DNA of 64,000 bases, taken from assembly GCA_964619365.1 (NCBI GenBank), contig CAZUDQ010000003.1:1-64000 (forward strand). Direction: 5' to 3'. This document shows positions 5,400 to 19,180 of the stretch, piece after piece (within the stretch, counting starts at the first letter, position 1; the number at the start of each line of letters is the position of its first letter). Under the pieces are notes generated by a model, which was not told the DNA's origin, ran no database searches, and saw only the letters and a list, made by a program, of their open reading frames with translations. A program made the translations under genes and the position numbers. Source of the stretch: an uncultured archaeon (GTDB taxonomy: Archaea; Altiarchaeota; Altiarchaeia; JAFGQM01).

Positions 5400-5801
5400 A
5401 TGGACCCGCACTCACGCCCGATATCTATTCCAAGACTCGTTCTTGAAACTGCGTTTGCCGCCGCGCGCAAGTCTCTACCTTTAGAATTCGGCGCGATTTT
5501 ACGGGGAATAAAAGGCGACCCGTCAGGCAGGGCAGTCAAGGAAATGCTACTTTTGCCAGGAACTGTTCAGGGACATGGGTTTACAAGCTTTCACTTAACG
5601 ATGATGCCTCTTTCTTCAGAAGGTATTGGAACTATACATTCACACCCTTCAGGCATCAAACGTCCAAGTGACGCCGACCTCTTAATGTTCTCGCGAACCG
5701 GGAATTCACATATAATAATTGGAAACCCGTTTAGGGACGAATCGGATGCCCGAGGCTTTGATTCGCAGGGAAAACCTGTTGAAATAATGCTTCTTGACTA
5801 A
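5400..5801 (+). CDS. JAMM/MPN+ (Mov34) family metalloprotease
   Basis: E...HSHPSG...PSDAD JAMM motif. Confidence 0.88.
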   Translation: MDPHSRPISIPRLVLETAFAAARKSLPLEFGAILRGIKGDPSGRAVKEMLLLPGTVQGHGFTSFHLTMMPLSSEGIGTIHSHPSGIKRPSDADLLMFSRTGNSHIIIGNPFRDESDARGFDSQGKPVEIMLLD

Positions 5802-5859
5802 TAATTATGTAAAAGTCGCCCTATTTTTTGACTTTTATACTCATATTTACTAAAATAGA

Positions 5860-6068
5860 TGTCGCTACGGGGCGTAATCTTGATTACTGCTGCTAACCTA
5901 AGATGATGGATTAACAACACGTGGCGCTACAAAGTTTAGCCCCTCCGGGTCAACCCGGTTGAGAGTGCATCCTGCACCCGACTATGATATCGGGAGTTAA
6001 CGAGGGGCAATAACGCTAAAGCGGGTAAAACACCCGCGTCATTTGTGTCGCCATTTACGTCTTTTTTT
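5860..6068 (+). ncRNA. Putative ~200-nt structured non-coding RNA of unknown family
   Basis: GC-rich intergenic segment with many nested stems, a TATA-like TTTTATA at 5833-5839 and a T7 tract at 6062-6068. Confidence 0.55.
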
Positions 6069-6137
6069 GGCAACAAAATAAGGCAAAACAAAGTGACACT
6101 TCATTTGGGCGGATGTTTTTAGCCGCCTTGAAAGATC

Positions 6138-6458
6138 ATGCATCAAGCATTACGCGAATCTAAAGACGGTACTATATTGCGAATCTGGGCAATGCCCGGA
6201 GCAAAAGAGACTGCCCTTTCGGATTATGACGGCTGGAGACAGGCAATCAAGCTCAAAACACGCGAACCGGCACTAAAAGACGCCGCAAACCGCGCGATAG
6301 AGAATTATTTGACCTCTCTTCTGGGGACAAGCGCCACACTAGTTTCAGGCGCAAAATCGAGGGAAAAAGAAATCCTCGTCAAAAACAAAAACCCCGCCCA
6401 AGTGCTTGATGCCCTAAAGGAAAGACAAGCAAAAAATAAAAAACAAAAATCAAAATGA
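6138..6458 (+). CDS. DUF167/YggU family protein
   Basis: PGAKET...EPALKDAANRAIENYL...LVSGAKSREK pattern. Confidence 0.85.
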   Translation: MHQALRESKDGTILRIWAMPGAKETALSDYDGWRQAIKLKTREPALKDAANRAIENYLTSLLGTSATLVSGAKSREKEILVKNKNPAQVLDALKERQAKNKKQKSK

Positions 6459-7912
6459 GTAAAGCACCTGTTGACATAATAAAATACGTTATTCATGCAG
6501 AAGCCGAGGCCACAGGCCTTGTCGAAAAACCAGACCTTATTGGCGCGATATTCGGCCAAACAGAAGGCCTTCTGGGTGAAGACCTTGATCTTCGCGAATT
6601 GCAAAAATCAGGGAGAATAGGAAGAATAGACGCAGACCTTGACACAAAAGCTGGCGTGACAAAAGCAAAAGTTACAATACCGTCAAGTCTTGACATGGTA
6701 GAAACCTCAATAATCGCCGCAGGCGTAGAGACAATAACCAGAATCGGACCGTGCGACGCAAAGTTCAAGATATCAAATATCGAAGATGTCCGCGAGGAAA
6801 AAAGAACGGCTGTTGTTTCAAGGGCAAGAGAGCTCCTTAAGACATTTATGCATGACGAGCTTCCAGACGCAAAGGAAATCTCAGAAGAGTTAAGAAAGGA
6901 TATAAGGACCGAAGAAATAACCAAAGTCGAAGGTCTTGACGCGGGACCCGCAGTGACAACGGCTGAGGACATAATAATCGTTGAAGGCCGCGCAGATGTC
7001 CTGACCCTCCTTAGAAACGGCATCAAAAATTCGGTTGCGGTAGGTGGAATCAAGATTCCAAAAGAGATAACAAAGATTGCAAAAGGAAAAAGTGTTACTG
7101 CGTTTGTTGACGGAGACCGAGGTGGAGACCTTATACTAAAATCCCTAAAGAACGCTGGCGTTACAATCGATAATGTCTCGCGCGCTCCGGCAGGACGCGA
7201 AGTAGAAGGCCTTGCCAGAAAAGAGATTGTTATGTGCCTGCGCAGGAAAAAGAGTTCAGAAGAGGCATTTAATGAACTTGATGATGCAAGCAACAAGAAA
7301 TCCTATTCAAGCGATAAGAATGACCGTGATGGCCGCAGCAGCGACAGCCGCTCAAGGTCAAGTGACAGAAACAGCAGCCGTGATGGCCGCAGCAGCGACA
7401 GCCGCTCAAGGTCAAGTGACAGAAACAGCAGCCGTGATGGCCGCAGCAGCGACAGCCGCTCAAAGTCAAGTGACCGTAGCAGCGACAGCCGTGATGGCCG
7501 CAGCAGCGACACTGAACGTTCTGAGAGTGCTCGCTCTCGTGGAGGCCGCGACCAAAATGACCGTGAGTCACGTGAGCCAAGGCAGAGAAGCACAAGACGC
7601 GACCGCGCACAGGCAACGGCAAATGTTGAAAGCGCAAACGCGGGCGAGAGTTCAAAACTCCTTAGTACTCTGACAAAATTAAAGGGCAAAATTGCAGTTC
7701 TTGATGACAAGTTCGAAGTAGTAAAAGAAGTAGAGATAGGCGACTTAAAGAAGCTTAAAAAAGAACTCAAAGACGCAAACGCTCTTGTTATTGACGATAT
7801 CCTCACAAACGAGGTACTCGAAAACTCCGGAGGAGCTAAATTCGTCTGTGGTATAACAACTGCAGGCAATCTCAAGGCGCCAAAGGACAAAAAGATCGTT
7901 ACAAAGTTCTAA
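6455..7912 (+). CDS. dnaG: Archaeal DnaG (TOPRIM, exosome-associated) with an Arg/Ser/Asp repeat insertion
   Basis: GAIFGQTEGLLG, LRELQKSGRIGRI, IVEGRADV and DGDRGG motifs. Confidence 0.96.
   Translation: MSKAPVDIIKYVIHAEAEATGLVEKPDLIGAIFGQTEGLLGEDLDLRELQKSGRIGRIDADLDTKAGVTKAKVTIPSSLDMVETSIIAAGVETITRIGPCDAKFKISNIEDVREEKRTAVVSRARELLKTFMHDELPDAKEISEELRKDIRTEEITKVEGLDAGPAVTTAEDIIIVEGRADVLTLLRNGIKNSVAVGGIKIPKEITKIAKGKSVTAFVDGDRGGDLILKSLKNAGVTIDNVSRAPAGREVEGLARKEIVMCLRRKKSSEEAFNELDDASNKKSYSSDKNDRDGRSSDSRSRSSDRNSSRDGRSSDSRSRSSDRNSSRDGRSSDSRSKSSDRSSDSRDGRSSDTERSESARSRGGRDQNDRESREPRQRSTRRDRAQATANVESANAGESSKLLSTLTKLKGKIAVLDDKFEVVKEVEIGDLKKLKKELKDANALVIDDILTNEVLENSGGAKFVCGITTAGNLKAPKDKKIVTKF
7324..7511 (+). 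repeat. In-frame 54-bp tandem repeat (about 3.4 units, RDGRSSDSRSRSSDRNSS) inside dnaG
   Basis: Units start at 7324, 7378, 7432 and 7489. Confidence 0.92.
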
Positions 7913-18912: not shown

Positions 18913-19180
18913 TGCGGGCTAGGTTGGGGGTTTAGGGGACCCCTCTTTCTTAGAATCCTCTTTAGAGAGCCAAGAACCTTGGGGCGGTTTTCCGACTTAT
19001 GGTTTGTGTCTGCTTTCCTCTGTGTCGATCTTTCGTCCCTTGGGGGCGCGCGGAGTTCGAATCTGGTCAGACCTTGACGGGAGCAGCCATAAGGATTCTT
19101 CTCGTCGTCTAAGGAATCGCGAGGGGGAGCATGTTAGCAGAACACAGGTCTTAGGAGGTTTTCCCACCCAAGTGTCCGCA
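18913..19180 (+). ncRNA. ffs: Archaeal SRP (7S) RNA
   Basis: 5' GCGGGCTAGG..GGGG start typical of archaeal SRP RNA; terminal helix TGCGGGC/GTCCGCA; helix 8 GGTCAGACCT-TGAC-GGGAGCAGCC at 19065-19088. Confidence 0.85.

Follow-up and report, generated by a model that had tools for sequence, protein, structure and literature searches.

Archaeal box H/ACA guide RNAs with two or three hairpins are described as rare (Czekay and Kothe 2021, PMC7991803). One of them, HgcG/Pab40 (Rfam RF00064; Pf7, Pho40 and Afu4), is a three-motif H/ACA small RNA (sRNA) of Thermococcales and Archaeoglobus, and in vitro work reported in Muller 2008 (PMC2377435) showed that U2016, which is among the two highly conserved pseudouridines (Ψ) of stem-loop 69, is modified by motif 3 of Pab40. 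Another, sR-h45 of H. volcanii, is described in Majumder et al. 2020 (PMC7075261) as a double stem-loop archaeal H/ACA RNA with an ANA triplet between its hairpins, of which the 3′ stem-loop guides the helix-69 pseudouridines and the 5′ stem-loop a second site in 23S ribosomal RNA (rRNA). The same kind of ribonucleoprotein (RNP) is represented in yeast by snR191 (Ψ2258/2260, helix 69) and snR10 (Ψ2923), which differ in being eukaryotic hairpin-hinge-hairpin small nucleolar RNAs without kink-turns (K-turns). Here we describe an RNA encoded on a contig of an uncultured archaeon of the Altiarchaeota (CAZUDQ010000003.1, positions 1–64,000; this stretch of 64,000 nucleotides (nt) is referred to as the window). 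Positions 5861–6012 of its + strand very probably encode an archaeal box H/ACA guide sRNA with two hairpins, whose role would be to direct pseudouridine formation to 23S rRNA.

The structured RNA is most likely an ordinary kind of guide RNA, neither a riboswitch nor a new RNA class. The original prediction, made from the DNA letters, had proposed a novel non-coding RNA or riboswitch-like leader; the fold is instead that of an archaeal box H/ACA guide sRNA, and the unpaired bases are explained by 23S complementarity and K-turns. Of interest are the rare multi-hairpin form, the loose 3′ box and a possible target in the A loop, with novelty judged against Rfam 15 only. In this way, an intergenic RNA conserved in a family of uncultured, small-genome archaea, and missed at Rfam thresholds, can be given a function, with two predicted pseudouridine sites at the functional heart of the ribosome, one in the helix-69 loop and the other probably in the A loop.

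At gathering scores, Rfam reports one signal recognition particle (SRP) RNA and two transfer RNAs (tRNAs) in the whole window, all of them outside the guide-RNA region, in which it finds no match; ARAGORN found no tRNA in 5802–6137. When E values up to 10 were admitted, the sole match within 5700–6250 was the HgcG/Pab40 H/ACA sRNA (5804–6017, + strand, 25.5 bits, E 3.4e-5), in an alignment that skips 80 of the 276 model positions (motif 2). The view that the RNA carries no known signature therefore holds at gathering scores and gives way below them: the Rfam search that had been suggested as a check returned nothing at gathering and only this H/ACA sRNA beneath it.

The match is reciprocal. 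A covariance model built from the window RNA (R1) finds the RNA in six of seven other genomes of the family (the one missed is 63% complete) and also in two genomes of a distant family, where it falls on motif 3 of genes identified as HgcG by Rfam (275.8 and 216.5 bits); the first of these is the HgcG gene of genome G089. At the sensitivity of this model, nothing was found in 92 of 101 genomes. Hairpin 2 of the window RNA is the counterpart of HgcG/Pab40 motif 3, and the two have in common a target, the helix-69 loop U, and a seven-pair upper stem with the same K-turn layout. On both sides, a single guide base next to the upper stem stays unpaired, and the box follows the first paired base of the 3′ guide at a distance of 14 nt in either RNA. 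The remainder differs. The guide strands of hairpin 1 are unlike those of motif 1 or 2, G+C over the matched stretches is about 51% in the window RNA and 71% in HgcG, the 3′ box is AUA-like and loosely conserved rather than ACA, and the gene neighbours are not the same. A helix-69 guide hairpin thus appears to be common to very distant archaea, while the rest of the RNA has been rebuilt.

Region 5861–6012 (+ strand) consists of two hairpins of the same build: a lower stem leads through a large internal loop to an upper stem, above which lies a K-turn signature. Paired cells and changed pairs in the following lines refer to the alignments of relatives, and LSU denotes the large-subunit (23S) rRNA of the same genome.

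5861–5869 with 5920–5928, + strand: hairpin 1 lower stem; 9 pairs, 6 changed on both sides, 88% of cells paired (17 sequences)
5870–5875, + strand: hairpin 1 5′ guide strand; core GGCG at 5871–5874, invariant in all covering rows
5876–5880 with 5908–5912, + strand: hairpin 1 upper stem; 5 pairs, 2 changed on both sides
5881–5907, + strand: hairpin 1 K-turn/kink-loop region; 5′ UGA at 5881–5883 and 3′ AUGA at 5903–5906, a conserved signature
5913–5919, + strand: hairpin 1 3′ guide strand; core CAAC at 5915–5918, conserved as CAAY
5929–5931, + strand: ACA box of hairpin 1 (internal, at the H-box position); invariant in all aligned sequences
5939–5945 with 6002–6008, + strand: hairpin 2 lower stem; 7–9 pairs in relatives; of 8 pairs in the model, 6 changed on both sides; 95% of cells paired
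5946–5953, + strand: hairpin 2 5′ guide strand; GGGUCA at 5947–5952 pairs with UGACCC of the LSU helix-69 loop
5954–5960 with 5988–5994, + strand: hairpin 2 upper stem; 7 pairs, 6 changed on both sides, 95% of cells paired
5961–5987, + strand: hairpin 2 K-turn; 5′ GAGA at 5961–5964 and 3′ C-UAU-GA at 5982–5987
5965–5969 with 5973–5977, + strand: hairpin 2 apical stem; 100% paired, 2 compensatory pairs
5995–6001, + strand: hairpin 2 3′ guide strand; GUUA at 5996–5999 pairs with UAAC just 5′ of the target U
6009–6020, + strand: 3′ tail; AUA at 6010–6012 in the ACA-box position, 14 nt from G5996, followed by GCUAAA

Across seven genomes, those of the window and of its six relatives (G001 to G006), 92.4% of the cells in this fold are paired and 15 of 34 pairs have changed on both sides, a value not reached in any of 500 shuffles; when the partners are slid by 1–3 columns, only 0–3 such pairs remain. 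With 17 distinct sequences, 91.6% of cells are paired and 22 of 34 pairs have changed on both sides (0/500 shuffles as high; 1–6 in the slid controls). The suggestion that relatives be examined for covariation at the dnaG locus was accordingly borne out for the two-hairpin fold, and for three of the helices originally listed; four others were not supported. G–U pairs are frequent (for instance, GU in 11 of 17 sequences at one pair) and compatible with the + strand only, which fixes the strand. The pair 5875–5913 forms in just 2 of 16 sequences, and the upper stem of hairpin 1 is therefore counted as five pairs. The homologue of metagenome locus L042 (739–947) is 209 nt long owing to a large insertion in the apical part of hairpin 1, where G001 carries a smaller additional hairpin. 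Within the hairpin 1 apical loop, CUGCUG (5887–5892) is invariant in all 18 covering rows, for which the H/ACA model gives no explanation.

The RNA is present once in the source genome (one match in all 1,208,397 bases). With blastn it was found in only 2 of 60 relatives, and covariance models were required to collect the others. A second covariance model, R2, was applied to 64 metagenome loci fetched with the N-terminal part of DnaG. It matches 12 of them, and a 13th (L036) starts inside hairpin 2 at a contig edge; DnaG identity is 70% or more at 15 loci, which include all 13 RNA-bearing ones; at the remaining two, only 41 and 146 nt of upstream DNA are available. At its sensitivity, R2 matched none of the 49 loci with DnaG at most 63% identical, and nothing in 33 genomes of five other families (f2–f6) of the class. 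In 7/7 genomes and 12/12 metagenome matches the RNA precedes DUF167-dnaG and shares its strand. The proposed link to DnaG holds as conserved gene order, and only within this one family.

The anatomy of both hairpins agrees in most respects with that of H/ACA guides. In each pocket, both strands can form at least three pairs around an unpaired U-N, tentatively so for hairpin 1. The K-turn of hairpin 2 reads R-A-G-R on the 5′ strand (with AG invariant) and C-NNU-GA on the 3′ strand in 19/19 rows, and that of hairpin 1 deviates once, with CGA for the 5′ UGA in one row; these signatures point to predicted L7Ae binding sites in both hairpins. The ACA of hairpin 1 lies 14–15 nt from the top of the 3′ guide strand. 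Muller 2008 (PMC2377435) gives 14–15 nt from ACA box to target, 5–6 pairs from K-turn to pocket, and an upper stem with at most one bulge. Hairpin 1, with its five pairs, fits these spacing rules, and the upper stem of hairpin 2 has seven pairs, as in Rfam HgcG motif 3. Majumder 2020 (PMC7075261) reports that typical reactions of single stem-loop guides can dispense with the ACA and that a double guide requires the ANA lying between its stem-loops, and an invariant internal ACA combined with a loose 3′ box matches these requirements. All four core proteins are encoded in the source genome, with scores above curated cut-offs: Cbf5 (431.8 bits), Nop10 (70.3), Gar1 (37.6) and L7Ae (94.5).

From these features a course of action can be proposed. 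The RNA would be transcribed from its own TATA box (5833–5839), with the primary transcript probably ending at a hairpin or at a T7 run (6021–6068). Judging by the family, each hairpin would bind one set of Cbf5, Nop10, Gar1 and L7Ae, with L7Ae on the K-turn above the upper stem and with the ACA/AUA box and lower stem contacted by the PUA domain of Cbf5. The internal-loop strands would then pair with 23S rRNA on both sides of an unpaired U-N, and that U would become pseudouridine. Hairpin 2 would target U1924 (helix 69) and hairpin 1 most likely U2549 (A loop).

Targets were sought in the genome's own 16S and 23S rRNA by a strict scan that allowed Watson–Crick pairs only, with the guide starting at or one base from the upper stem. 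The best site for hairpin 2 is LSU U1924, with 4+6 Watson–Crick pairs; 13 of 1000 shuffles reach 10 pairs. U1924 is the first U of the helix-69 loop and aligns with the helix-69 site of G089; we take it to be E. coli U1915 and the snR191 site of yeast. Guide and target have also varied together. A guide C faces an LSU G in the window genome where a guide U faces an LSU A in G089 (HgcG), a G>U change in the 3′ guide of G004 is matched by C>A in its LSU to give 5+8 pairs, and A>G guide changes in other loci retain wobble pairing with the target U. Hairpin 2 is therefore a predicted guide for the first U of the helix-69 loop, the site of Pab40/HgcG motif 3 and also of the 3′ stem-loop of sR-h45. 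In sR-h45, which we compared by its published description, UNUN is left unpaired and two pseudouridines (1940 and 1942) are made (PMC7075261), whereas the guide of hairpin 2 pairs with the second U as well, so that a single, typical UN site is predicted. The helix-69 loop, normally highly conserved, carries base changes in G001 (L016) and G004 (L017), guide-matched in G004 and unmatched in G001.

For hairpin 1, the A-loop UU (LSU 2549/2550) is flanked immediately by GUUG on its 5′ side, which pairs with CAAC, and by CGCC on its 3′ side, which pairs with GGCG. With U2549 as target, the distance from C5915 to the ACA is 14 nt, as in hairpin 2 and HgcG motif 3. The A loop is the top strict match for hairpin 1 in 4/4 family genomes with rRNA, and its sequence is identical in all five LSU copies of the family and differs from that of G089 at paired bases. 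From these complementarities, we give slightly better than even chances to hairpin 1 guiding the U just 3′ of the conserved A-loop G, U2549. This position is presumably E. coli U2554 and yeast Ψ2923, the snR10 site. If the assignment is true, it would supply an archaeal equivalent of that yeast site, for which archaeal documentation is poor. In yeast, Ψ2923 neighbours Um2921 and Gm2922 in the modification table of Sloan et al. 2016 (PMC5699541). The 5′ stem-loop of sR-h45 makes Ψ2605 instead (PMC7075261).

Hairpin 1 may instead act elsewhere in rRNA, on a tRNA or on some further RNA, or may be an orphan or a structural element. The odds of this, though somewhat short of even, are to be taken seriously. 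The A-loop match comprises just 8 Watson–Crick pairs (4+4 or 5+3), which 104 of 1000 shuffles reach, and this counts against the assignment. The scan covered rRNA only. With loose boundaries, in the window alone, LSU 584 (7+3 pairs) and LSU 1768 score equally well or better. Neither withstands comparison: LSU 584 varies in G001, G004 and G006 with an unchanged guide, its target U being C in G006, and the two sites lie 13 nt (LSU 584) and 16 nt (LSU 1768) from the ACA, outside the 14–15 nt of Muller 2008 (PMC2377435). The constancy of the A loop and its first rank in every family genome scanned argue in the same direction. Two further candidates were rejected, LSU 1400, which merely mimics the upper stem, and U2491, the Pab40 motif 1 site by alignment, which pairs poorly with hairpin 1.

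Several observations weigh against the identification as an H/ACA guide, or against parts of it. The HgcG score is 25.5 bits against a gathering score of 77, and with two motifs and an unrelated first hairpin the window RNA is not a member of RF00064 as defined. Both covariation alignments were fitted to the structure model; RNAalifold was therefore run on a plain, unfitted MAFFT alignment as an independent check, and it recovered all five helices of the model, among them the lower stem of hairpin 1 and a hairpin 2 apical stem closed by an invariant G–C pair; 14 of its 37 pairs are compensatory. The minimum-energy fold of the + strand is no better than that of shuffles (z −1.32; 13 of 200 fold as well), and the minus strand of the region folds better (z −2.96); an RNA from the minus strand was nevertheless rejected, the conserved G–U pairs, ACA box and GA motifs suiting the + strand only. 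The box after hairpin 2 is ANA in only 8 of 17 distinct sequences, GCA in 2 and other triplets in 7, and the distance from guide to box varies from 12 to 17 nt (hand count); metagenome locus L043 has ACA at 14 nt. In G006 a guide U faces a C in the LSU of that bin, leaving no strict match at helix 69, and the LSU of G001 carries a G that breaks one pair with the guide. Finally, target scans that admit G–U pairs (and loose boundaries) do not discriminate, a score of at least 10 being reached in 43 of 300 shuffles for hairpin 1 and in 124 of 300 for hairpin 2.

The remaining explanations concern how the RNA relates to its surroundings, of which the relevant features are as follows.

5400–5801: JAB/JAMM-domain gene (Prok-JAB, E 2.6e-10)
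5833–5839, + strand: TATA-like promoter box TTTTATA; predicts a start at about 5860–5863
6021–6037, + strand: small G+C hairpin downstream of the guide RNA; matched in position, though not in sequence, by a hairpin in six of seven family genomes (by eye)
6042–6054, + strand: stretch complementary to 5921–5933 (hairpin 1 3′ strand and ACA); specific to the window
6062–6068, + strand: T7 run; candidate archaeal termination signal
6138–6458: DUF167 gene (E 5.6e-14)
6455–7912, + strand: gene for an archaeal DnaG-like Toprim protein, after the DUF167 gene

The guide-RNA locus is the 336-nt spacer (5802–6137) between the JAB/JAMM-domain and DUF167 genes. In all seven family genomes, a T/A-rich octamer ends 17–18 nt before the start of the model (hand count), a position that predicts a start at the foot of hairpin 1. 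This supports the original claim that the + strand carries a separate gene for a structured non-coding RNA, served by a TATA-like promoter of its own, and the T-tract was likewise confirmed downstream of the RNA. The hairpin at 6021–6037 may represent the 3′ end or a terminator. Hairpin 2 is separated from the DUF167 start codon by 18 nt in G003, 21 in G002, 28 in G006 and 32 in G004, and by 58 in G001, 96 in G005 and 129 in the window (hand counts). Between RNA and DUF167 the window exceeds its relatives by about 100 nt, including the 6042–6054 segment, the T7 run and a second hairpin (6107–6128).

These distances bear on whether the same H/ACA RNA is instead the 5′ part of the DUF167-dnaG transcript, released by processing. 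The 18–32 nt in four of the genomes leave little room for a separate promoter, so that in several genomes RNA and operon may share a transcript, and the conserved gene order is in keeping with this. In the window (with T7 and with TTTTTA about 20 nt before the ATG), G005 and G001, however, termination and re-initiation would have room, relatedness alone may explain a gene order conserved within one family, and the HgcG gene of G089 has different neighbours. We consider release from a shared transcript unlikely. A cis-regulatory leader or riboswitch of DUF167-dnaG, switching between the lower stem of hairpin 1 and a helix of 5921–5933 with 6042–6054, is very improbable. The alternative helix is real in the window, with 12 of 13 positions pairing, a degree of match found in 4 of 2000 shuffles of the downstream 164 nt, and the RNA stands directly upstream of the operon in every genome and metagenome match. 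Its 3′ strand, however, has no counterpart in the six relatives (best 8–10 of 13 within 164 nt), so that the two mutually exclusive folds described originally are a feature of this genome only; no riboswitch or leader family was matched in Rfam even at E values as high as 10, rRNA complementarity, K-turns and ACA together explain the conserved unpaired bases, and a T7 run and about 70 nt separate RNA and gene in the window. Mutually exclusive helices that are convincing in a single sequence can evidently vanish upon aligning relatives. A combination of the two, in which the guide RNA is a processed DUF167-dnaG leader and 6042–6054, in this lineage, toggles it between assembly into an H/ACA RNP and an inactive fold, is also improbable; if true, it would couple the output of guide RNA to the expression of exosome-associated DnaG. 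A miniature inverted-repeat transposable element (MITE), an alternative named at the outset, or a chance fold in an intergenic spacer is scarcely credible: the fold energy of the + strand is not significant, as such a reading would have it, but the single genomic copy excludes a MITE, the RNA occupies the same locus in six of seven family genomes, and compensatory changes affect 22 of 34 pairs.

The box H/ACA guide sRNA accounts for part of the pairing that had been read from the window alone. All of the complementarities then listed are readable, some with coordinates off by 1–2 nt:

5863–5869 with 5920–5926, + strand: CGCTACG/CGTGGCG; conserved, hairpin 1 lower stem
5874–5887, + strand: GTAAT/ATTAC; present in the window, unsupported in relatives
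5935–5940 with 6015–6020, + strand: TTTAGC/GCTAAA; present in the window, TTTA/TAAA extension unsupported in relatives
within 5939–6008, + strand: GCCCCT/AGGGGC; conserved, hairpin 2 lower stem
5945–5958, + strand: CCGGG/CCCGG; present in the window, unsupported in relatives
5965–5977, + strand: GTGCA/TGCAC; conserved, hairpin 2 apical stem
5977–5994, + strand: CCCGA/TCGGG; present in the window, unsupported in relatives
6021–6037, + strand: GCGGGT/ACCCGC; present in the window
5810–5817 with 5830–5837: 8-nt inverted repeat; present in the window

The three conserved helices keep compensatory changes in relatives. The four others (GTAAT/ATTAC, CCGGG/CCCGG, CCCGA/TCGGG and TTTA/TAAA) jointly have 74% of cells paired with 2 of 19 pairs changed on both sides, and CCCGA/TCGGG is found in only one of seven sequences. 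The perfect 8-nt inverted repeat (5810–5837, 12-nt spacer) overlaps the TATA-like box and, by eye, was found ahead of the RNA in none of the six relatives. In the window-specific spacer, 6027–6037, which covers the loop and 3′ arm of the 6021–6037 hairpin, is 91% complementary to 6109–6119, just before the DUF167 start codon, a stretch that itself lies within the local GGCGG/CCGCC hairpin (6107–6128).

The source genome is archaeal, 1.2 Mb in 17 contigs and 85% complete. The neighbouring genes had been called correctly as JAMM, DUF167 and dnaG, as profile matches show. For the SRP RNA at 18914–19179 (+ strand), Rfam reports Bacteria_large_SRP (83.8 bits) and not the archaeal SRP family, only the best match of the clan being displayed. 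The DnaG protein (6455–7912, + strand) has a long, repetitive Ser/Arg/Asp-rich insert after the Toprim domain, at about residues 285–385, and similar low-complexity inserts occur in DnaG of the relatives G006 and G001. Between the JAMM gene and the guide RNA, G001 (L003), and only this genome, has two similar open reading frames of 194 and 191 amino acids (1687–2271 and 2319–2894), and G006 has a different one of 131 amino acids at the same place.

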